Source: Mobula hypostoma (taxonomy: Eukaryota). From it: 64,000 nucleotides of DNA. The stretch is from NCBI RefSeq assembly GCF_963921235.1, contig NC_086108.1, positions 93,498,001 through 93,562,000 of the forward strand, read 5' to 3'. Shown one piece after another: positions 700 through 59,800 of this stretch (position 1 is the first letter of the stretch; every line of letters starts with the position of its first letter). The position numbers were made by a program, and so were the translations under genes. The notes beneath the pieces were generated by a model, which saw nothing but the letters and a program-made list of their open reading frames with translations, was not told the origin of the DNA and searched no databases.

Positions 700-1878
700 A
701 AATTCCTCCGTCTCTGCCGCATCTGCTCTCAGGATGAGGCTTTTCATTCTAGGACGAGGGAGATGTCTTCCTTTTTTAAAGAAAGGGGCTTCCCTTCCTC
801 CACTATCAACTCTGCTCTTAAACACATCTCCCCCATTTCACGTACATCTGCTCTCACTCCATCCTCCCGCCACCCCACTAGGAATAGGGTTCCCCTGGTC
901 CTCACCTACCACCCCACCAGCCTCCGGGTCCAACATATTATTCTCCGTAACTTCCGTCACCTCCAACGGGATCCCACCACTAAGCACATCTTTCCCTCCC
1001 CCTCTCTCTGCATTCCGCAGGGATCGCTCCCTACGCAACTCCCTTGTCCGTTTGTCCCCCCCATCTCTCCCCACTGATCTCCCTCCTGGCACTTATCCGT
1101 GTAAGCGGAACAAGTGCTACACATGCCCTTACACTTCCTCCCTTACTACCATTCGGGGCCCCAAACAGTCCTTCCAGGTGAGGCAACACTTCACCTGTGA
1201 GGTGGCTGGGGTGATATGCTGTGTCCGGTGCTCCCGATGTGGCCTTTTATATATTGGCGAGACCCGACGCAGACTGGGAGACCGCTTTGCTGAACATCTA
1301 TGCTCTGTCCGCCAGAGAAAGCAGGATCTCCCAGTGGCCACACATTTTAATTCCATATCCCATTCCCATTCTGACATGTCTATCCACGGCCTCCTCTACT
1401 GTAAGGATGAAGCCACACTCAGGTTGGAGGAACAACACCTTATATTCCGTCTGGGTAGCCTCCAACCTGATGGCATGAACATCGACTTCTCTAACTTCCG
1501 CTAAGGCCCCACCTCCCCCTCGTACCCCATCCGCTTTTTATTTATATACACACATTCTTTCTCTCTTTCTCCTTTTTCTCCCTCTGTCCCTCTCACTTGG
1601 TTCCCCCCCCCCTTTTCTTTCTCCCCAGGCCTCCTGTCCCATGATCCTCTCGTATCCCCTTTTGCCTATCACCTGTCCAGCTCTTGGCTCTATCCCTCCC
1701 CCTCCTGTCTTCTCCTATCATTTCGGATCTCCCCCCCCCCTCCAACTTTCAAATCCCTTACTCACTCTTCCTTCAGTTAGTCCTGACGAAGGGTCTCGAC
1801 CTGAAACGTCGACTGCGCCTCTTCCTACAGATGCTGCCTGGCCTGCTGCGTTCACCAGCAACTTTGATGTGTGTTGCC
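700..1878 (+). mobile_element. Penelope-like retroelement, 5'-truncated (RT thumb, linker, GIY-YIG, 3' UTR)
   Basis: FLRLCRICS...RGFP...RVPLVLTYHP, frameshift in the C-run near 995-1005, then GIY-YIG to stop at 1504 and a pyrimidine-rich UTR. Confidence 0.93.
1778..1815 (+). ncRNA. Minimal type-I hammerhead ribozyme (PLE-associated)
   Basis: TAGTC-CTGACGA-AGG(GTCTCGA)CCT-GAAA-C-GTC^-GACTG; complete catalytic core, predicted cleavage after 1810. Confidence 0.85.
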
Positions 1879-5650: not shown

Positions 5651-7926
5651 CAGTAGATTCTGGATTAATTGAGCCATTGGTTAATCAGGGCAGCCGCTTA
5701 TTTGGGACAACTCTTAAAGAACAAAAACAATTTGAGAAAATAGCCAGGTTTCACTTCATTTATTTGGGATGCTGCCACTTAATTGGGACAGGAGACTTGC
5801 TGAACAGTTTCTAACTAGAGTCAGTCACTTGCACGTGTTTGTGTTCAAAAAGCAGTGATTTTTGCCACAGCAGACAATTCAGAACTGTTTTGCTCACTAT
5901 GTATTCAAACATTCTAGGTTGCAGATACCAGAAATCGCCGGGAGTGAAAATGAAACTATTTCACTACTTCATCTGGTTAGGAACTATGAAGAATTTGAAA
6001 ATGACAGTCACCTTAAATGTCACAATGAAAATGAAGATTTGGAGGATACAGTTTTCAAAAACATTGCATGAAGGCAGTCCATTATCTGCACTAGGTGTCC
6101 GCGCTGATTTTGTTCACTTAAAGTCTATGAAAAGAACACTGCAGCATACACTGGATGAATTCCTCCGATAACTATTTTTCTAAGCTCCATGTATCTATCC
6201 AGGAGTCTCTTAAAAGACCCTATTGTTATTGTTTCCGCCTCCACCACCCCCGCCGGCAGCCCATTCCACGCATTCACCACTCTCTGCGTTTTTAAAAAAA
6301 CTTACCCTTGACATCTCCTCTGTACCTACTTCCAAGCACCTTAAAAATATGCCCTCTCCTAGCCATTTCAGCCCTGAGAAAACCCTCTGACTATCCACAC
6401 AATCAATGCCTCTCATTATCTTCTACACCTCTATCAGGTCACCTCTCATCCCCTGTCGCTCCAAGGAGAAAGGCTGACTTCACTCAACGTATTCTTATAA
6501 GGTATGCTGCCCAATCCAGGCAACATCCTTGTAAATCTCCTCTGCACCCTTTCTATGGTTTCCATGTCCTTCCTGTAGTGAGCGACCAGAATTGAGCACA
6601 GTACTCCAAGTGGGGTCTGACCAGGGTCCTATATAGCTGCAACATTACCTCTCAGCTCTTAAACTCAATCCCACGGTTGATGAAGGCCAATGCACCTTAT
6701 GCCTTCTTAACCGCAGAGTCAACCTACACCAAAGCTTTCAGTGTCCTATGGACTCGGACCTCAAGATCCTTCTGATCCTCCACACTGCCAAGAGTCTTAC
6801 CATTAATACTATATTCTGCCATCATATTTCCCCTACCAAAATGAACTACCTCACACTTATCTGGGTTGAATTCCATCTGCCACTTCTCAGCCCAGTTTTG
6901 CATCCTATCAATGTCCCACTGTAACCTCTGACAGCCTTCCATACTATCCACAGCACCATCAACCTTTGTGTCATCAGCAAATTTGCTAACCCATCCCTCC
7001 ACTTCCTCATGCAGGTCATTTATAAAAATCACAAAAAGAAGGGGTCCCAGAACAGATTCCTGAGGCACACCACTGGTCACCGACCTCGATACAGAATATG
7101 ACCCATCTACAACTACTCTTTGCCTTCTGTGGGCAAACCAGTTCTGGATCGACAAAGCAATGTCCCCTTGGATCCCATGCCACCTTCCTTTCTCAATAAG
7201 CCTTGCATTGGGTACATTATCAAATGCCTTGCTGAAATCCATATACACTACATCTATGGCTCTACCTTCATCAATGTGTTTAGTCACATCCTCAAAAATT
7301 CCAGTCAGGCTCGTAAGGCATGACCTGCCTTTGACAAAGCCATGCTGACTATTCCTAATCATATTATGCCTCTCCAAATGTTCATAAATCCTGCCTCTCA
7401 GGATTTTCTCCATCAACTTGCCAACTACTGAAGTAAGACTCACTGGCCTACAATTTCCTGGGCTATCTCTACTCTTTCTTGAATGACGGAACAAAATCCG
7501 CAACCCTCCAATCCTCCAGAACCTCTCCCGTCCTCATTGATGATGCACAGATTATCACCAGAGGCTCAGCAGTCTCCTCCCTAGGTTCCCACAGTAGCCT
7601 GGGGTACAACCCGTCTGATCCCGGTGACTTACCCAACTTGATGCTTTCCAAAAGCACCAGCACATTCTCTTCCTTAATATTTACATGCTCAAGCTTTTCA
7701 GTCCACTGCAAGTCATCCATACTATCACCAAGATCCTTTTCTCTAGGGATCTAATTTATTCTCTATTTCATTTAAATACTTAATTTATTACTCAGTTACA
7801 CCGTAGTTTCTCTTTTTTTTAAATACCTTTTAAATTATTTCTGTGGAACTTCGGCTGATTGGGGCAGCCGCTTAATTGGCTGAAATGTATTGGTCCTGAT
7901 GTGTCCCAATTAACTGGTATCCACTA
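5651..7926 (+). mobile_element. Non-autonomous pogo/Tigger-like element, split by a CR1 insertion
   Basis: TA|CAGTAGATTCTGGATTAATTG ... CAATTAACTGGTATCCACT termini, TIQNCF remnant; related copies at 22760 and 35235. Confidence 0.75.
6174..7745 (-). mobile_element. CR1 LINE ORF2 fragment (reverse transcriptase)
   Basis: ORF 6724-7503: RPVSLTSVVGK, QHGF, DFSKAFD, SGVPQESVLGP, FADD. Confidence 0.95.
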
Positions 7927-20552: not shown

Positions 20553-21920
20553 TATGCTGGAGGAACTCTGCAGGTCTGACAGTATCTATGGAAAAGAGTA
20601 CATTTGACATTTTGGGCTAAGATCCTTCATCAGGACTGGGGAAAAAATGAGTTAGAGTAGAAAGTGGGGTGAGGGGAGGAAGAACCAGAAGGTGATAGGT
20701 GAAACTGGGAGGGTGAGGAGTGAAGTAAAGAGCTGGAATGTTGACTGGTGAAGGAGATACAGGGCTAGTGAATGGGGAATCTGATAGAGGACAGAAGGCC
20801 ATGGAAGAAAGAAAAAGGGGGTGGGGGAGCACCAGAGGGAGGTGGTAGGCATGTAAAGAGAAGGTCAGAGAGGGAAATGGGACTGGTGAAGGAGCGTGGG
20901 GTGTGGGCAGTACCAGAAGTTTGAGAAGTGTTTGTTCATGCCATCAGGTTGGAGGCTACCCAGACAGAATCTGGGTAGAGGAATCCATTGATTGACATAT
21001 GAGAATGGGAAGTGGAATTAAAATGGGTTGCCACTGGGAGATCCTGCTTTTTCTGGCAGGTACTTGGCGAAATGGTCTCCCAGTCTATGTTGGGTCTCAC
21101 CAATATACAGGAGGCCACACCAGGAGCATCGGATACAATAGATGACCCCAGCACTCACAGGTAAAGTGTCACCTTACCTGGAAGGACTGTTTGGAGTCCT
21201 GAATGGTAGTGAGGAAGGAGGTGTAGGGTAGGTGTAGCACTTGTTCCACTGCAAGGATAAGTGCCAGGAGGGAAATTAGTGGGGAGGGACAAATGGACAA
21301 GGGAATCGCGTAGGGAGCAATACTTGTGGAAAGCAGCAAGTGGGCCACCCATTTTAATCCCACTTCCCATTCTGACATGTCAGTCTATGGCCTCCTCTAC
21401 TGTCAAGATGAGGCCGGAGGAACAGCACCTTGTATTCCGTCTGGGTAGCCTCCAACCTGATGCCGTGAACGTCGACTTCTCAAACTTCAGGTTATGAAAC
21501 AACCCCCCCCCCCCCTTCACCAGTCCCATCTTCTTTTCCCTCTCTCACCTCATCTCCTTGACTGCTTATCCTCTCCCACTAGTGCTCCTCCCCTTTTTCT
21601 TTTTCCCATGGCTGGCTGTCCTCTCCTATCAGATTCCCTCTTCTCTAGCCTGGTATCTCTCACCAATCAACTTCCTAGCTCTTTACTTCATCCCCGCCCA
21701 GTTACACCTGTCACCTTATGTTTCTTCACCTTCTTGCCCCCCCCCCCCCACCCACCTCTAACTTTTACTCCTCATCTTTTTTTTCCTCTAGTCCTGATGA
21801 AGGGTCTCAGCCGGAAACATTGACTTGCTCTTTTCCATTGATGCTGCCTGGCCTGTTGAGTTCCTGTAGTTAGTGTTTTGTGTGTGTTGCTTAGATTTCC
21901 AGCTTCTGCAGATTTTCTGT
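20553..21920. mobile_element. Tail-out inverted pair of Penelope-like 3' fragments
   Basis: minus copy 20553-21338 abuts plus copy 21339-21920; both carry GIY-YIG C-terminal remnants and a hammerhead-type tail. Confidence 0.85.
21789..21826 (+). ncRNA. Partly decayed hammerhead motif
   Basis: TAGTC CTGATGA AGGGTCTCAGCCG GAAA CATT GACT; CGTC changed to CATT (consistent with CpG decay). Confidence 0.6.
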
Positions 21921-22176
21921 AGTTTTTATCTTCATTCTCTGCCCAAGGGACCCCTCACTTCTAATCTGGGTGTATGTAGTTATTTTATCCAGTTATTATT
22001 TTAACATATATTTGATTTTTTTTATTAACTTCAGTGTATTTCATTTTTGAGTTAATTTGTAAAATTGTTGGTAATGAACTTTGAGTGCTGCCAGTAAATG
22101 ATTAAACATTATTTGGGTATACCTTTGCTTTTTTACAGAAAAGTTCTTGTCTGTTAACTTGATATGTTTTTTCCAG

Positions 22177-25300: not shown

Positions 25301-28300
25301 TAAGAGTTTTATTCCAAACGAGAGCTTACTCTTCGTGGGGGGAAGCAGAGAGGGGAAGGAACTGAAATGTTGGATTATAGTTGCCAACTTCTGGGGGAGT
25401 GAGGAGGTCCTTGCAGAGAAATTTTACGCAGATTTATTGAACCAGAAAATTTTTTTATTATTCGCACTGTATTGCTTTTTCAAAATGATTTGTTCCAAGA
25501 AGGTTGTACTACAGCTTCTTCAAAAGAAGTTAATTAAAGAGTACTTTGTTATGGCTTACTCACAGTACGTTCACCCTGTTAGTGTGCTTAACGGCACAGG
25601 AAACTGATGTCTTGCAAGATTTCAGTCTTATGAGATTTGGAACAGAAGTTCCAAATGGGTCTATGAATTTTGTTTATGCTTGAATGAAGAATGATTTGGT
25701 ACATTTTGCCTGTGAACTTTGTAATAGCTGTGTCGGTAGGTTCCGTTCAGCAGTTACGTCTGTTGTTGGTGTATGCTATTTGAGGTATTTATTATAATTA
25801 TATTAAATCAACTTGGCATATACATATCTATTACTGAAAATCCTTGTGCTTGTTGAATTGGTTTACATTAATTGAGACATATAATTTACTTCATAATGTG
25901 GAGTGAATACCTTGTTGTACTGAAATGTTATTTCCTCTTAGGTGCAAACTACAATGAAGTAGATGAAGAGAAAAGAGAGCATTTCAGTGAAATATTTGTT
26001 TCTATTGACGCACTGGCGTTCACTTTTGGTAATGTGTAAGTAATACAACTTCTAATCTTCTGTTGTTATGGGGATTTTAGCTGGAATATTAATAAAATGA
26101 ATTTGTATTTTAAGAATGCCTTGAAAGATGATTCAACTACAAACATGTAAAGTAATTTGTTTATTCATTAAACTATTAAATTTTAGCTTTTTTTTTCCCT
26201 ACTCCTTCCTATCCCTCAGATCCAACCACACCACTTTTCCAGTTTCTGACTTTTTCTGGAACATGGCTATACTGCATTAATGTCCTTCCCATAGTTTTTC
26301 CGTGTGAGTTTACACACTGAAAGTCAGCAGTGTTTTCAGCAATAGTAGTCAAGCTCAAACCTGTTGTTAGACTACATCTGATATTTGATGACTTTAATGC
26401 TAGTAATTGTTTGGCAGCCAGGGAGGTGAACCCTGACTTTCTTTCTCTCCACCCCCCCCCCACACCACCACCACCCCACCCAGTTTTGTGTCTCACTAGT
26501 TGTAGTGATCAGTTGCTTTTAAAGTTGAAATATAAAACTAAAGGATTGAAAAGTGAACCACAGCCTTATGGACTGAGGCTGAATACTTCTGTCTGTGGCA
26601 ATTGCACCCAAATTTAATGTGCATCTTCGAGTTGTTTGGGTTTAGAAACTGAAACTTAATACCTGATGAAATCTTTGCTTCAGTTTGAAGGGGGGGGGGG
26701 TGTGTGTGCGTGTAAGACTAACATTTTGTTTTCAGAAATGCATGAGTTAAATGAATTAAATGAGAATGATTTGTTTATTTGCTTACAATGACCACAGATT
26801 GCTTGTGTGATAGTAAAGCACATTTAAATTAAAGCATAACAGCTCTTTAATAGTAAAGAAACTTTTTCTCTTTCTGAGAGAATGCTCTCTTCCATTTTGA
26901 TTCCATGTGCCTTGAGTAACTGGGTAATCAAACTATTTCTTCATAATGACCTGTTTATATCCACAAATGTAAAAAATCATTGGGCATTCTGTAACTTCTA
27001 CTGTGGTTAAACTAGGCAGGCCCTTGGCAGTAAACTTTTTAAAATAAATTTCTATTTGTTAATAAAACAACTGTATATTTATAAATATATTTATTTTCTA
27101 ATGTAGTGTTTAGATTGCTATTACTGTCTCTTGGTTTCTCTTCCATATTGGAGCTTTGTTTATTACCTAATATCCTAACTTTAATTCAATACATGAAATG
27201 GAATCTAGTGATGTATCTACCAGCAAAATAACTGTTATGATTGTTGCATCACAGTATTACATTGTTCAGAATGTTTTTGTGACAATCACTAGAGTGACAT
27301 TCTAGAATTAGATTCGTTTTTAATCTTCAATATGGTAGAGGTTTTTTTTATAGGATATGATGAATAAGCAGGAATAGGGTACTTGGATGGCCAAAGATGA
27401 GAGGATAAAATGTAGGTTAGGGTATCTATGTGTGTATGATTGGGTGAAGGAATTTGGATTGTAAGTCTATTGCACACTGCGGAGCAGAAGGTGGCGGTAA
27501 TGCACCAATAAGCTGGGTGCCAACTGCCATAAAACAAGAAGAAAAAAATTTGCTTCAGGCACGTAATGTCCTGCAGGCACTGCAGGAGAAGGACGAGGTG
27601 GACTCAGTGGGGTGGTTCCCTGAGCAGACTGTCCAGTACATCTGGCAAATTGCCTTATCGCTAGACCTCACCAACAGGCACAAAGACCTCGCCTGGCTGG
27701 CGGTGAGAAGGGCCCTCCCAGTCAGATCCCTAGTGTACGCCCGGAACATCGCCTCCACACCCCACTGTCCACGGGAGGACTGCAGTGAGGTGGAGTCAGT
27801 GACTCACCTCTTTGCACACTGTGGGTTCGCGAAGAAGGTGTGGAGGAGGATGGAAGGGGCGGTGTCAAGATTCACGCACAGCAACTGCGTAACCGAGGAC
27901 TCCCTGATCTACGGGCTGTTCCCAGGGACACACACGGAGACAAACATCTGGTGTTGCTGGCAGATCATCAATTCAGCGAAGGACGCTCTTTGGTCTTCCT
28001 TAAACTTGGTGGTCTACCAGCACATGGAGATGTCTATGACTGGATGCTGCCGACTGGCACATTCTCACCTGCAGAAGTACATGCTGAGGGATGCACTCAA
28101 GTTTGGTGCAGCCACCGCAAAGGCCCGGTGGGGAAGGACCACAGTTTAAGGTTCATCACCCGCGGAAGTGGGAGGGGTCGGGTGGGGAGGAGAATACCCC
28201 TCCATCAGCGATGTGGATAGATGAATCAACATGGTGCCCCAGGAGTGGCTGAAATTGTGTAGACGGTTAAAGAAGTTCGGTAAAGGAATTAGAGTCAACG

Positions 28301-31300: not shown

Positions 31301-34300
31301 AGAGAGGTACCAGTAGCACATACGAGCCATGATTTGCTGCAGTTTGCCATATTCAGCAATGGTGCCTGCCTCAGGGGTGGGAGGGGATGAACTTTTCTGT
31401 CCTTGTGTATTGAAACCTGGGTGACAAACAATGAAATGTATCAGCAGTAGCATGGTATCATCCTGGGGCTTGAAGGCCGAGTGCAATGTTGACAATGATG
31501 TTAATTGTGACTATTCACTACCAGCATATATGCAATGCTGAATTTAAAGTGGCAAGAGATTACCTACTCAGCGAGGACTGTCTTGGCTTAGAGATTTTGC
31601 TATGAGTGAGGGTCCCGACACTGAAAAATGTCCTGGATGGAGAGCTCTTCAGAGTTTCCTCCACATGTTTCCTGTGGTTGTCAGTAATATCTTTGACATC
31701 CATGGCCTATTCCCATTTTATCCAACAAGAAGTGTTGTGCGGGTATTTCCATAATAAGTCAGGTTTAGGTGAAGAAAACTGAAGATTCTTTGTATGAATG
31801 AAGTGTAAAGCTGCAAGTTCAAGTTTAATTGTCATTCAAGCATACACATGAATACATCCAACCAAAACAGCTTTCTTGTAGGGGCACTGTGCAAGACAGA
31901 ATATCAACAGTCGCACGCAGTTACAGTACATTTAGCACATGTAATAATGACAGCAATTCACTGGTGGTTAGATCTGCAGTACTTGATGTTATTATCCAGC
32001 AGTCTCTCGAAATCATAAAAAAAGGAATGGATGATAGTTACACATTTGTTTGGACACAGAGGCTGCTGTGATCATACGCGCCACCATCTTACCGATAGAT
32101 TATGCTGTGCTTGGTGTAACTTGGTTAGTATAAAGTTTGAATATGGTCCCTTTAATAAACACGAGAAAGTCTGCAGATGCTGGGGGACTCAGCAGTTCAG
32201 GCAGCATCTATGGAAATGAATAAACAGTCAACTTTTCGGGTTGAGACCCTTCTTCAGTACTGAGAAGGAAGGGGAAGAGGGAAGGAGACTAGCTGGAAGG
32301 TGATAGGTAAAGCCAGGTGGGTGGGAGAGGTCAAGGGCTGGAGAAGAAGAAATCTGATATAAGAGAGTGGACCATAGGAGAAAGGGAAAGAGGAGGGGAC
32401 AGAGGAGGAAGTAAAAGGTCAAAGTGGGGGGAAAAGGAAAGTGGGGTGGAGTTTGTTTACTGGAAGGAGAAACCAATATTCATGCTATCAGGTTGGAGGC
32501 TGCACAGACGGAGTATAAGATGTTGCTCCTCCACCCTGAGAGTGGCTTCGTCTTGGCACAAGAGGAGACTTTAAATGTTCCTTTAAATCAGATGTTCAGG
32601 GTTAATAAAAAACTGACTGTTCAGCAAATAAACAGTTAAGTTGAAATTCATATGGGCGTGGAATTTCGGGCATCATACTGTTGATGACAGTTAGGGAATT
32701 CTTACAATGTAAAGTTCTTTCTAGTATTAAAAATGTCACTTGATTGTTAAATTTCTCTATGGGTTCTGAGACTAGGAAATGGGAATAGAACAAAAACTGA
32801 GCCCTTTTGCATCTCCACTACAAATTTAATCCTTCATAATTCAGAGGAATTTTCATTATTAAAAACATGGTTCCAATGCAAAAGAAAATCACCCAAATGA
32901 AGAAAGAATGGAGCCACACTCAGGTTGGAGGAACAACACCTTATATTCCGTCTGGGTAGCCTCCAACCTGATGGCATGAACATCGACTTCTCTAACTTCC
33001 GCTAAGGCCCCACCTCCCCCTCGTACCCCATCTGTTACTCATTTTTATGCACACATTCTTTCTCTCACTCTCCTTTTTCTCCCTCTGTCCCTCTGAATAT
33101 ACCTCTTGCCCATCCTCTGGGTCCCCCCCCCCTCTTTCTTCCCGGACCTCCTGTCTCATGATCCTCTCGTATCCCCTTTTGCCTATCACCTGTCCAGCTC
33201 TCGGCTCTATCCCTCCCCCTCCTGTCTTCTATCATTTTGCATCTCCCCTTCCCCCTCCAGCTTTCAAATCCCTTACTCACTCTTCCTTCAGTTAGTCCTG
33301 ACGAAGGGTCTCGGCCTGAAACGTCGACTGCACCTCTTCCTATAGATGCTGCTTGGCCTGCTGCGTTCACCAGCAACTTTGATGTATGTTGCTTGAATTT
33401 CCAGCATCTGCAGAATTCCTGTTGTCAGCCCATTTTCAACTGCTTTCCATTCTTTTGCATCATTGTGTGAAAAGTGATGTTTGGAGCAGCATGAACATGC
33501 ATCTTCCCATTTTCTCTTGCTGCCCAGTGCCTGCAGCTCAGAATGTAAATAGAATAGTTCTTTCCATCTACAAAGATTTCACTATTCTCGCTTGTCACCT
33601 GTTATTTTCTAGCTCTGTGAATGGCAGAGAGAATCATTCAATACAGCCTTGTGTGGAAAACCTACAGCAATGTCATCCAAAAGATCTGTGCCACGCTCAA
33701 TGTGGAGTGATCAGATACAGTCCACTTAAGAGCATTCTGCTGATGGTTGAATTGCAAATGTAACAAACAAATAAATACTGCAATGAAGTCATCTTGTCTC
33801 TGCAAAATCAGGAAGTCTTAAGCTTAGATCCCAAGATCATGAGTTAATAAACAGAAGCCCATTCTAGATATGGATTCTTTCCTAATAGGTTCAAGGATTA
33901 ATTTATTTACAAATCATCTAAAAATGTTTTTGCCATTGCATAATTTTTGATGGAAAGCATATAATATGATGAGTTGGTGCAATTTGCATTGTCTACCTAA
34001 ATTGTGAAGACTAATGTCCATTGAAGGTCAAAAGGAATGCGTTGCGTTCTTTTCACCAGTGTAGGGGAATCTACAACTAGGTGAGATACAAGAAGGCATC
34101 ATGTCACTGTGCCCATGAACTGCCTGGCATATAGTAATTGAATCATTGTGGAAAGAACAATTATTTCTTTGTATAAGTAGGCTAAACAATAAAGGAAATA
34201 ATAGATTAAGATGAGTTTTTTGATTGTTACTGAGACTGACTGAGAGTATGTATTGTGCTTTGAGCCAGTGAGAAAAGCATTCCAGCATCAGAAAATTGCT

Positions 34301-47800: not shown

Positions 47801-50800
47801 AATGAGATGTGACCTCATTGAACCCTATCAAATGGTGAAAGGCCTTGATAGAGCGAATGTGGAGAGGATGTTTCCTATGATGAGGAGAATCTAGGGCTAG
47901 AGGACACAGCCTCAATAGAGGGGCATCCTTTTAGAGCAGAGATGAGGAATTTCTTTAGCCAGAGAGTAGTGAATTTGAAATTCTTTGCTAGGCAACTGTG
48001 GAGGCCAAGTCTTTACGTATACTTAAGGCAGAGGATGATAGATTCTTTATTGGTCATGCCAAGAAGAGATGCAGGGAGAAGGCAGGAGATTGGGTGCTGA
48101 GTGGAAAATTAGACCAGCCATGATTAAATTGTGGAGAAGACTCAGTGGGCCAAATAGCCCTATTCTGCTCTTATATCTGATGGTATTATGGTCTGTGTTG
48201 AAACTAATAAAATTATTTATGCAGAGAGTCGATATGGATCTTATAGGCTAAATGGGCCACCTTGAGCTATTATTTTAATTCAGTGCTTCATCATTCTATG
48301 ATTTCGTCCTGTCATATGGGCAGGTTGTTGTCAATAGATAAATGTTTCTGTAAATCTTTTTCAGTTTTGTTAGTATGGATTTTTTGTTTTATATCTGTGC
48401 TGCATGGTTTTGCAAGATGATCTATTGGGCTAATAGTTTAAGGCAGAGTTGACATTTTTATAGTCTAAACTGTATCTCTGGTTTCCCTTTTGCAGCAGTC
48501 CAAAGTCATGGGGCATTCAGAGCTTGGCCCTTAGGACCGCAGGGCAGTGGTATGTGCAGTGATTCAGAAAGTGGAGGAGGAAGCAGTGAGTCACAGTCTG
48601 TGGATTCCCCTTCTACTAGCCCAGGTATGGAAACTAAACTTTTAGTAACTATTCCTGATGTCCCAAATCACTATTTTGGTTTATATGGTAGGAACATGAG
48701 CATAAGGTGTTACAAATTCATTTGCTGCACCCTACCACAAGTCTCTGAAGAATGAGAATCAGAATCAGGTTTAATATGACTGGCATATGTCATAAAATTT
48801 GTTTTACAACAGTACATCTCAATGCATAGTAATAAAAACTATACATTACAATAAGTATAGTACTGTGCAAAAGTATTGTACACATGTAAAGGACATGTAA
48901 AAGAAAATCTAAAGCAAAGTTGCTTTTAAAAATGAAAAGTTTCTAAATATCAAAAAAATTACTATAAGGAGCAGTAAATGGTGAAAAAAAAATCAAATCA
49001 ATATTTGGTGTGACTATCCTTTGTCTTTAAAACTGCATCAATTCTCTTAGGCACACTTTTGAGCACTTTTATAAGAAAATCGACTGGTAGGTTGTTCCAA
49101 GCATCTTGGAGAACTTGCCACAGTTCATAGACTTTGGCTATCTCGCATGCCTCTGTCTCTCCAGGTAATCCCAGGCAGCCTTGATGATGTTGGGATCAGG
49201 GCTCTATGGAGGCCATTGTATTTGTTGCAGAACTCCTTGTTCTTTAGACTGCAGATAGTTTTTGGCCTTGTGTTTGGGGTCATTATCCTGCCGCAGAATA
49301 AAGTTGGGACCAGTCAGACGCCTCCTTGGTGGGATTGCGTGATGGATGAGGATCTGCTTGTACTTCTCAGCATTGAGGGTTCCATTAACTGACCAAATCG
49401 CCAACTCCATTTGCAGAACTATAGCCCCAAACCTGCAAGGAGCCACCACCATGCCTCACTGTTGGCTGCTGACACTCATCCATTTAGTACTCTTCTACAG
49501 ATAAATTGTAGCTGGTTTGAGACAAAAATTTGAAATTTTTGTCTCACCAGTCCAGAGCACTTGCTGCCATTGTTCAGCACCCCAGTCCTTGTGTTTTTGT
49601 AGGTAGGTGAATCTCTTGGCTTTGCTTCTACTTTGGAAGAATGACTTTTTGGCAGCAACATGTCCATGAAGACCACTTCTGACAAGACTTCTCCGGATTG
49701 TAGAGGGGTATACTTGGGTTCCAGTAGTTTCTGTGAGTTCAGAGCTGATGGCAGTGCTAGACGTCTTCCAATTTAGAAGGGATGCCAGTTTGATGTATCT
49801 CTCATCTGCTGCGCTCAACTTCCATGGCCGACCACTACTCTTACTACTCTTCTGGTCCTTAATCTTGCCTCTTTCTTCAGAAGAGCTTGAACAGCACATC
49901 TTGAAACACTCATCTCCCTTGAAATTTATGCTTGGGAAAGACATTGCTGATGCAAATGGCTGCCTTGTGCCTTGTTGCTATGCTCACTCTTGCCATGGTG
50001 TAAGAATTAATGATTTAAAGTTTGAATTGTGGCATCTGCCACATCCTCATCTTATAGTTTGGTTGCCCTTCACAGAGTTTGATTTGTTCTACACCTATTT
50101 CTGTTACAGTTAATCAGATTACTTCATTCAAATCATTATGTCATTGATCATTAGCATCCTGTTTGTTATCTTTGCTTTACCATGCACCGCGCTACACATT
50201 ACCTACAAAGTAAGTTTTTATTTGAAAAATGGTCTACTACTTGTATGTTATTTTAACAAAATACAGTTTCTCTAACATATATAATTGTTAGGAAAATGAA
50301 TGTTTGGAAATCTGAAATTTGCTCTTTTCTACTTATACACTCACTGAAACAAAATTGCTATAAAAAATGTTGGGTGCCTAAATTATTTACAGTACTGTGT
50401 GTATGAATATACATAAAATAAAGTAAACGGTGCATAGAGAGAGGGGAAAATATTAAGCAAGTGTTCACGGGTTCATTGTCTGTTCAGAAATCTGATGGTG
50501 GAGGGAAATGAGCTGTTCCTGAAACATTGTGTGTCTTCAGGCTTCTGTTCCTTCTTGAAAGTGGCAATGAGAAGGGTGCATATCCAAGGGGATGGGGGTC
50601 CTTAATAATGGATGCCACATTTTTCAGGCATTGCCTTTTGAAGGTGTTCAAAATGCTGGGGAGTCTAGTGCCCATGAGCAAGCTGGCAGAGTTTACAACT
50701 TGCTGCAGCTTTTTCCAATCCATGCAGTGGCCCCATAAACAGCGATGCAGCCAGTTAGAATGCTCACCGCAGTACAATTGTAGAAATTTGCAAATGTCTT

Positions 50801-56800: not shown

Positions 56801-59800
56801 GTAAAAGTCCATGTTTGAATTAACTTTTGTCAGTTGTTTTCCTGTTCACTCAACATTAGTACCTCAGTGCTCTGCACAGAGGTCACTTAAACAGTGATAC
56901 TGTTTATGATTGCAGAACGCTTTTTTTTTGTGTGCCCTTTCAGTTTTATGATGCATTTTATAGCTATCAGTAATATTTGAAAGCCCATGCATGCAGAGAA
57001 AAAAAATTACAGTATCCCAGCTTCAAAAGTTGACATGTGTTTTTAATTTTATTATGTCTCCGAAAAGGAAATTTCATCCTACTGGTGGTTTTCTGAACAC
57101 TTTTCTTTGAAGCATTCTCCTTCAAAAAGATGTTTTACAGAATAAAATCTGAAGAGCATTTGCCTTTTGTGCCATCGTAAATCCAAATCAGGTTCTATGT
57201 CTTGACTGCATTGTGTTCAATGGCATTAATTTCATGCTTAAATTGCTCTGGTAACTTGACAATGTGGCGTTGACTCCATGTAACTATAAACAGCTTCAAG
57301 TTCCTCGGCATCCATATCACCGAGGACGTCACATGGTCTATACACACCAGCTGTGTAGTGAAAAAGGCACAACAGCGCCTCTTTCACCTCAGACTGTTGA
57401 GGAAGTTTGGTATGCGCCCTCAGATCCTGATAACTTTCTACAGGGGCACAATTGAAAGCATCCTGACCGGCATCACTGCCTGGTATGGGAACTGTACCTC
57501 CCTTAATTGCAGGACTCTGCAGAGAGTGGTACAGACAGCCCAGCACATCTTTAGTTGTGAACTTCCCATGATTCAGGACATTTACAAGGACAGGTGTGTA
57601 AAAAGGGCCCATAGGATCATTGAGGACCCAAGTCATCCCAACCACAAACTGTTCCTGCTGCTACCATCTGGGAAGCGGTACCACAGCATAAAAGCCAGGA
57701 CCAACAGGCTCCGGGACAGCTTCTTCCACCAGGCCATCAGACTGATGAACTCACGCTGACTTGAGTGTACTCTATATTACATTGACTGTTCTATTTATTA
57801 TAAATTACTGTGATTGCACATTTAGGTGGAGCCGTAAAGATTTTTACTCCTCATGTATGTGAAGGATGTAGGGAATAAAGTCGATTCAATTCAATTTACT
57901 TTTATTTTTAAAGCTTTGTTTCCATTTACAGTATGTTTTGTGCATCATTTGTTGAACACAAGAAAGTAGGACTAAGAGTAGGCTAGCTGGCCCTCATACA
58001 TGCCCCATCTTTAAATATGATCATAGCTAATCTGCTTCAGGCCCCAACTCTTATGCCTGTTCCCCATAGTCCTCAATGTTATGATCTTTAAAAACAAAAT
58101 TATCGACCTCCTCTTTAAGCACCTTCCAGTAATGTAGCTTCCATAACCTGCTGAGATAGAGAATTCCAGAAATTCACTGCCTAAGACCTGTCATTTCCAT
58201 TCTTTCAGTATAAGTTGAACTGTATCTTGCATTGTGATGTACTTTACAGTACCTGTAACCTTTATAGTAATTACAACCAATTTTCATAAAGCTTGTTCCC
58301 ACTCATTTATAAGGTTTAACCAGGGGATAAATATTAGCTTGTATACCAGGATAACAGACTTGCTTTTCTACTTTAATATGGTACCTTTGTCTGCCTAATA
58401 GTACAAACAAGCTGAATATTTCAGTTCTCTTGATAGTGTAACATTTTCTCAATTCTGCATTATGATGTTACTTGTTACTTTAATGAACTTTATAATAGTG
58501 TTACCAACTAAAAACATTGACAGATTCACACATTTGCGTTTCCTCAACAGGGTAGCAGAAAAAGAAGAAGAAAATAAAATGTCACCTAGTAACCTTGGGA
58601 TAATATTTGGACCCACTCTCATTCGACCAAAACAAACTGATGCTACTGCTTCATTATCTTCTCTCGTTGACTATCCATATCAGGCTCAAATGGTGGAACT
58701 ACTCATTAATTATTATGAAAAGATATTTGTTTTTTCACTGTCTCCATCATATTCACAAACTGGAAAGACCTTATTTGATGAGAAAGATAAGGTTATTCCT
58801 TTGTCACCTGAGGAAGGTATCCCAAAAAACAAGGGTCATCCAAAAAGTAACAAAGAGGTGAGTGTTGGCTTGACCATTCTGTAGAGCTTCTAGGAGTTTA
58901 GAGTCTTCTCTCCCCCCCCCCCCATTGTTGGAATACTCCAGAAATGCATTTCCAACAAAGATCAAGACAAAATCTCTCTTGCATTAGGATCAACAAAGAT
59001 CCCAATTTAGAAATCAAAAAATAAATTTGTGGTAATACTCAGCAAGCCAAATGTATTTCTGAAAAGAGAAATAGGGTTGATATTTCCATTTGAACACTTT
59101 TTTTTAAATACAGCTTTCAATAATTTGCAAATGTTTTTGGTTGTCAGTTTGGTTATTTTGGCGCACTTACCAGTTTGTATTTCTTATCCATAAAGTTCAT
59201 GATTATTAGCTCTATAATAAAAACAATATATTCCAAGACTCTTGTTTCTGAAGTGTATTCACAAACTTTAATCTAAGTTTAATTTATATAAAATCCATAT
59301 ATGATATCATGTGAGAAAATGAAATAGATTGCAGTTTTGAATTGCTGAAAAAGAGAAAGGAAGAAGAAAATTAACATGCCCATAGGGGATAAGTTGAAGC
59401 TGAATAGGACATGAGGGTAATGTGGAAAGGAAGCTTATGAAAACTTTAAGATTTTGAAAATTGAGAGTTTTTTTTTGCCAATGGGGCATTGCTTTAATGT
59501 TATTTACTTAGGTAGCAGAAATGCTGGCTATATGTGATGAATACATAGTGGGGGGAGAGGTGGATTAAGTAGCATGAAACGTGACTATGGTTTGAAGTGG
59601 TTCATTCTTAATTACATAAGGCTTTGCTTGTAATCAAGTCACAAAACTTGATACTCTTTGTTAGGTGTGAAGGAAATGGGAGTTTTTTTTTCATTTACTT
59701 AAAGGCTTTTAACAAATATGGACATAAAGTTATGTAGTTCATTGGGAATACTCCAGGCAATGATGATGATGCAGTGATTGCATTATTATGCTAGTAACTA

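Follow-up and report, generated by a model that had tools for sequence, protein, structure and literature searches.

A minimal hammerhead ribozyme motif in a truncated Penelope-like element of the ray Mobula hypostoma

Introduction

When a broken copy of a mobile element still carries a complete hammerhead ribozyme motif, should we expect that motif to cut RNA, or is it just being carried along? Positions 1778-1815 (+ strand) of a 64,000-nucleotide stretch of the genome of the ray Mobula hypostoma, which we call the window, raise this question. A sequence-only reading had proposed here an intact minimal type-I hammerhead in the 3′ UTR of a Penelope-like element (PLE), catalytically competent and serving to process element RNA out of longer transcripts.

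The class, the placement, and the architecture of this motif have been published since 2014. What the locus adds is one copy of that class from rays, a group absent from the alignment in PMC4209133, whose 56 motifs, in the text available, include no cartilaginous fish. In the literature on the hammerheads of shark and ray PLEs, we found only one chondrichthyan, in the preprint 10.64898/2026.07.22.740005 (supplements aside).

We conclude, with a probability of about 0.85, that 1778-1815 is a complete PLE minimal hammerhead (min-HHR) in a truncated and frameshifted copy, where it is likely just carried along, with little or no cutting.

A complete core without a stem III hairpin

All core positions of the published PLE min-HHR consensus (PMC4209133 Fig. 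S3) are present at 1778-1815. Read 5′ to 3′ on the + strand, the motif starts with the 5′ strand of stem I (1778-1782), whose partner is 1811-1815 (in a dimer model, that strand of the partner RNA). The region 1783-1790 follows, with the core C3-A9, CUGACGA, at 1783-1789, and an extra A at 1790 between positions 9 and 10.1. Stem II with its 4-nt loop takes up 1791-1802. The last segment before the 3′ strand of stem I, 1803-1810, reads GAAA (1803-1806), C1807, and GUC (1808-1810), and includes positions G12-A14, the palindrome ACGU (1806-1809) that replaces stem III, and C17 at 1810. The cut is predicted to fall after C17, between 1810 and 1811. Stem I, UAGUC/GACUG, has five pairs (four Watson-Crick and a terminal U·G), in the range of 2-6 pairs for PLE min-HHRs, and closes the motif in the type I topology. 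The sequence-only reading had named the core, the GAAA, the C-GUC, stem I, and the palindrome, and all of them are there. The palindrome has no loop, and the stem III hairpin of a canonical type-I hammerhead is absent from the sequence 1778-1815.

Could such a short motif be a chance lookalike? The bare core pattern is common (9 matches in the window vs. 4.1 expected, an insignificant excess), and Rfam reports no hammerhead family, either over the whole window at the gathering score or over 1500-2100 at E ≤ 10; a search with Rfam Hammerhead_1 was the check that had been put forward earlier. This miss is likely explained by the absent stem III hairpin, which the Rfam models presumably want. A descriptor of the full motif, which also requires the two stems and the palindrome, speaks against chance. 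It finds two loci in the 64-kb window, at 1783 and 33298, whereas dinucleotide shuffles give one locus in 3/300 cases and two loci in 0/300, and one locus with a stem II of at least 4 pairs and a stem I of at least 5 pairs in 0/300. The motif also sits in a pseudo-LTR and fits the published consensus. On the shuffles and on the family alignment described below, we rule out a chance resemblance, to which we would assign a practically negligible probability.

The register of stem II

Where the sequence-only reading misread the structure is stem II. It had proposed three pairs, starting at A1790-U1802 and closing a 7-nt loop, a register that we dismiss on predicted probability and on the alignment. 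In the favored register A1790 is unpaired, and the stem has four pairs (1791-1794/1799-1802), namely G1791·U1802, two G-C pairs, and U1794-A1799, around the loop CUCG. For the bare 38-mer, ViennaRNA gives the pairs of the 4-pair stem probabilities of 0.80-0.94 vs. 0.04 for those of the 3-pair register; for A1790-U1802 the contrast is 0.04 against 0.93. We aligned 11 motifs, 9 from the window and 2 from another family, leaving out 2 window fragments that match only downstream of the motif. The first pair of the 4-pair register forms in 8/11 motifs (6 G-C and 2 G·U), vs. 2/11 for the first pair of the 3-pair register. The fourth pair varies across the motifs (C-G, U-A, U·G). Changes on both sides are observed in 4/9 pairs, a weak covariation whose score is reached by 13/500 shuffles, in an alignment whose rows are related.

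The two motifs from another family come from metagenome scans, in which a close hammerhead pattern found 0 loci, and a looser pattern found two, L001:1155-1182 (+) and L002:1501-1528 (-). Their similarity to the window is limited to the motif. Both share the core and the register, have a G-C pair at 10.1-11.1, and differ in their stems. They lie on contigs of another organism, and their fetched flanks showed no ORF similarity.

At 10.1-11.1 the 1778 copy has a paired G·U, departing from the G-C of the published consensus (CUGANGAH-G..C-GAAAN-NU-H, with G10.1-C11.1 in >80%; PMC4209133). Counting by eye in Fig. S3 of that paper, G·U at this position occurs in 8/56 motifs, and the same four letters after GAAA in 13/56. 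Since it is a natural variant, this G·U does not appear disabling on its face. We found no literature with measured rates for G10.1·U11.1 hammerheads.

The motif shares with the min-HHRs of Cervera & De la Pena 2014 (PMC4209133) the core, the extra nucleotide after A9, G10.1, the short stem I, the palindromic 15.2-16.2 without a loop 3, and the location in the pseudo-LTR (pLTR). It differs from their consensus by the U for C at 11.1, and its stem II is shorter than in their fish Poseidon and Xena examples. Like the motif at 1778, theirs are mostly single motifs in truncated copies, with some opposite-strand pairs.

The host element

The element that carries the motif spans 700-1877 on the + strand. 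In its first part (700-1504) only the last stretch of a PLE ORF is left, 5′-truncated and frameshifted, which holds the end of the RT thumb region, a CX4CxxC linker, and a GIY-YIG endonuclease (EN) with CCHH residues. This copy has no RT core, its frame shifts near 1000, and it has a Cys at the position of the GIY tyrosine. Its Pfam GIY-YIG score is 16.1 bits, below the curated cut-off, and the frame of an inverted twin (1-699, - strand) gives a hit at that cut-off, with 22.9 bits. Of 13 longer relatives, the closest, with 94% identity, is an RT-EN protein from Mobula hypostoma. These longer relatives carry RT plus EN, and when the RT core is judged from them, we recognize the organization of an EN+ PLE, that is, a C-terminal GIY-YIG with CCHH and an RT upstream. 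By the definitions of PMC8557442, the CX4CxxC linker and the CCHH residues point to a Neptune-type PLE.

Like the Neptune EN+ PLEs of Craig et al. 2021 (PMC8557442), the ray element has a C-terminal GIY-YIG, CCHH, a linker of the form CX2-5CxxC, an inverted 5′-truncated partner, and a tail confined to one end (30-40 bp in that paper). Unlike intact Neptune elements, 700-1877 is a broken fragment.

The second part of the element (1505-1877) is the pseudo-LTR, the region that in PLEs comes after the ORF and both drives and heads the next tandem unit (PMC2377424, PMC6765202). The motif lies 279 nt past the GIY-YIG stop at 1504 and 62 nt short of the element 3′ end. Thus, a placement in the 3′ UTR holds in the literal sense, but the region is a pseudo-LTR; and the identification as a PLE minimal type-I hammerhead stands, since no core position is missing and the surrounding terminal repeat belongs to a GIY-YIG PLE. 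The copy ends at 1877 without a tail. In public sequencing runs, loose contig ends cluster at 1875-1877, continuing into tail or AT-rich DNA, and we therefore take this position to be a regular 3′ end of the family, recurrent and tail-less. It agrees with what was shown for the Anolis element, in which reverse transcription has two starts (PMC11167929).

As in that element, the Poseidon PAc of Frangieh et al. 2024 (PMC11167929), the hammerhead is just upstream of the 3′ ends, with an optional tail and AT-rich flanks. Unlike the Anolis Poseidon, the ray element is Neptune-type by its linker, and we did not find at 1778-1815 an ORF start inside the ribozyme such as PAc has. No downstream tandem unit is present after 1877. 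The non-LTR retrozymes of Li et al. 2026 (10.64898/2026.07.22.740005), the set with the one chondrichthyan reported, also have the type-I hammerhead of a PLE pLTR. They are defined by at least two tandem hammerhead units and no coding sequence, unlike the 1778 locus, which has no tandem array and retains endonuclease coding sequence.

A pyrimidine tract and an AG occur before and inside stem I (1760-1780), and another tract and AG at 1820-1830, before an ATG at 1831. The first resembles the situation in the Penelope element of D. virilis, where an intron ends at helix I. We saw no spliced joint at the AG before or inside stem I in the contigs of the runs examined; in one run (X8), 12 contigs come loose ahead of 1780, and their consensus there is mixed. 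Separately, ray and skate database proteins named as host genes (P0005, P0010, P0015) are wholly or partly the ORF of this PLE, by either mis-annotation or exonisation.

Other copies and the host gene

The 9 aligned motif copies in the 64 kb include two that are intact, at 1778 and at 33293. The inverted twin (1-699, -) is 96% identical to 875-1571 and runs off the left edge of the window, and its own hammerhead would fall ~210-245 nt beyond that edge. The second intact-core motif (33293-33330, +) has one difference in 38 positions, and is hosted by a shorter copy (32904-33426) that retains a ~34-nt tail. It is the nearest intact same-strand motif to the 1778 copy, 31.5 kb and four exons away. 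The window also has an older inverted pair of the same family (~20555-21925) in which both hammerheads have decayed (20638, -; 21789, +), and fragments of other mobile elements at 6724-7533 (-), 27448-28149 (+), 49495-49977 (-), and 57274-57759 (+), with profile matches among them to RVT_1 (RT), zf-RVT, a Tc1-like transposase, and ALKBH8_N.

The coding exons of an ARHGAP29-like gene extend over 22176-61612 (+), in 19 aligned coding segments that correspond to residues 88-1319 of the Hypanus protein. Because residues 1-87 were not found within the window, the region 1-22175 is likely an intron of this ARHGAP29-like (RhoGAP) gene, which would put the 1778 motif in sense orientation in the pre-mRNA. 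The second intact motif, four exons downstream, is likewise sense to the gene.

With both intact copies in sense, and with the published examples of intronic hammerheads domesticated in amniotes, one may ask whether the host has co-opted these copies in order to regulate the ARHGAP29-like pre-mRNA. We give this proposal hardly any credence. The 1778 copy is young and has ordinary private changes, the 11 family fragments in the window are oriented 5 sense and 6 antisense, and a slow intronic hammerhead cut need not block splicing (work cited in PMC2995048). A more general proposal, which we regard as a long shot, is that ray genomes contain a huge pool of intact-core PLE hammerheads, many of them in sense introns, and that these, each depending on a partner or on the protein of the element, form a latent genome-wide system for cutting pre-mRNAs that expression of the PLE protein would switch on. 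This pre-mRNA would have two such copies (1778 and 33293), and the U11.1 of the young subfamily would allow stem II to alternate between the register with the extra A and one with a canonical core. The locus would matter if intronic copies proved to cut host pre-mRNA.

Folding and competence of the 1778 copy

Is the 1778 copy catalytically competent, as the sequence-only reading had it? Structure prediction argues otherwise. According to ViennaRNA, the bare 38-mer preferentially forms a helix between CGUC and the GACG of the core, in which the cut site is hidden. Once native flanks are added, the left core is captured by the pyrimidine tract that precedes it, and 1808-1812 becomes the partner of 1796-1800. 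The ensemble of open hammerheads lies above the full ensemble by 4.6 kcal/mol for the bare 38-mer, and by 6.4-9.2 kcal/mol with native flanks; the penalty for the 33293 copy is much alike. Dimers fare no better, with a double hammerhead at -10.9 vs. a cofold minimum of -31.5 for the homodimer, and at -11.2 vs. -30.9 for the mixed pair of 1778 and 33293. In a + strand transcript, the arms 1-699 and 875-1571 form a long duplex, which would cover the 1778 motif if the left arm, beyond the edge of the window, reaches its pseudo-LTR end.

Nearest-neighbor energies take no account of tertiary contacts in the core, of Mg2+, or of protein. The predicted misfolding lowers the odds of activity, but it is no proof of inactivity, since mispairing of the core with GUC would affect many published motifs too.

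The published activities are themselves low. For the Schistosoma PLE hammerhead, the monomer gave no cleavage and dimers gave low cleavage. Lunse et al. 2017 reportedly describe dimer cleavage for such variants, which may have a bearing on the rate to be expected. The Anolis PLE hammerhead cuts only with the protein of the element, its catalytic mutants insert normally, and RNA-seq showed no ends at the cut site (PMC11167929). For Xenopus, 1/9 tandem dimers was active (preprint 10.64898/2026.07.22.740005). Given the predicted misfold, the lack of a same-strand tandem partner within 31.5 kb, and this weak published activity, we think that the 1778 copy is likely close to inactive.

Family variation in public runs

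We compared the region 1742-1930 to 4 of the 23 listed public runs, none of which is recorded as RNA. All of them consist of contigs, so that ends, strand, and level are unreadable; runs X8 and X18 are RNA by guess, and the others are DNA-like. One run (X1) has 57,044 contigs on a 189-base stretch, a depth that is not a copy number, and what we claim from it is just that this PLE family is very abundant. The contigs of the four runs leave the unique flank 1889-1930 uncovered, which says nothing about expression. The flank of the insertion locus, though not its junction with the element, is seen in organism B.

In stem II, A1799 is a rare letter of the 1778 copy, with G in 95-99.7% by summed depth. 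T1802 (U1802 in the RNA) is the majority letter of close relatives, with 69-84% of the depth vs. 16-31% for C. Because T1802 is so frequent while the mirror CpG change, G1803>A, has only 1-5% of the depth, we consider U11.1 likely to be a subfamily trait, inherited from the master of a young subfamily, although reference bias may inflate T. These numbers, together with the presence of U11.1 in the second copy, lead us to reject a reading of it as CpG decay that is private to the 1778 copy and inactivated it.

No variant reaches 3% at 1742-1794 in any run, a span that includes the left core plus 36 upstream positions outside the ribozyme. Changes in the right core reach 1-8% and are of the CpG type; in the DNA-like runs, CpG changes are at 3-8% in the right core and at 10-12% in loop II. 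As a test of excess core conservation across genomic copies, which the sequence-only reading had put forward, this has low power: selection plays no part in the decay of dead copies, and rare variants are lost from contigs.

The two organisms of the guessed-RNA runs also have DNA-like runs. Just downstream of the motif, A>G at 1827 occurs at 14-16% in the former vs. 2-2.5% in the latter, and A>G at 1831 at 3-6% vs. 1-2%. This fits A-to-I editing of double-stranded family RNA and hints at it; the same pattern could come from alleles, or from a bias in expression toward one subfamily.

What the motif may do

At the level of the family, we propose the following mechanism, inferred from published PLEs. 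Where one transcript spans tandem elements, two of its motifs would pair via their ACGU palindromes, which would build the missing stem III. The paired motifs would swap stem I strands, and each core would cut its partner after C17. The RT-endonuclease protein of the element probably assists this hammerhead dimer, and slow cutting would trim multimeric PLE RNA. The processing of element RNA that had been claimed for this locus is plausible for the family, but not for the 1778 copy, which is truncated, frameshifted, and has no tandem partner nearby. This copy would have inherited the motif, likely without using it. It would be transcribed as part of the ARHGAP29-like pre-mRNA of the host, in which misfolding is predicted. 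We expect it not to cut because the RT and any upstream pseudo-LTR are lost, because its twin is on the opposite strand, and because 31.5 kb and four exons separate it from the nearest intact motif on its own strand. As a counterpoint, family RNA appears abundant in the two guessed-RNA runs, so partners in trans may exist.

That counterpoint bears on the possibility that the 1778 copy is competent after all, and cuts element RNA from longer transcripts with the help of a trans partner or of the 33293 copy. Every core position is present, the second intact motif is on the same strand of what would be the same pre-mRNA, and family sequence is found in the guessed-RNA runs. We consider it improbable all the same. 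One cut cannot free a unit, the element is truncated and frameshifted, the hammerhead fold of the heterodimer (-11.2) lies well above its cofold minimum (-30.9), and in published cases activity is low and depends on protein.

A question at the family level is whether obligatory cleavage is not the main reason for which the motif is retained, and whether it serves instead as an RNA fold or signal near the tail and the start of reverse transcription, as a 3′ splice site that overlaps stem I, or is a ribozyme that is hitch-hiking. The catalytic mutants of Anolis have no effect on insertion (PMC11167929), Naiads have spread without canonical hammerheads (PMC8557442), the dominant young subfamily carries the weaker G·U at 10.1-11.1, and the pyrimidine tract and AG ahead of stem I (1760-1780) recall the D. 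virilis intron end. On the other hand, the subfamilies and an unrelated family all retain the catalytic core together with the two stems, both-side changes occur in 4/9 pairs (with the weak signal already described), and no spliced joint is seen in the contigs. On balance, we find a mainly non-cleavage role rather unlikely. If the G·U subfamily has spread while catalytically dead, this would speak for PLEs being able to move without cleavage. As for the role of PLE hammerheads in vivo, the 1778 copy makes that question no more testable than an intact young element would.

Some contigs have junctions at the motif itself. In run X8, one contig exits the element exactly at 1810, into unrelated sequence; such an exit would be expected from cutting and religation, but a single contig proves nothing. 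Contigs of runs X1 and X5 jump back from 1815 to 1779, 1817 to 1780, 1810 to 1766, and 1877 to 1776. They hint at head-to-tail duplications barely larger than the hammerhead, which would provide a dimer partner in cis, and such hammerhead-only duplications resemble short retrozyme units.
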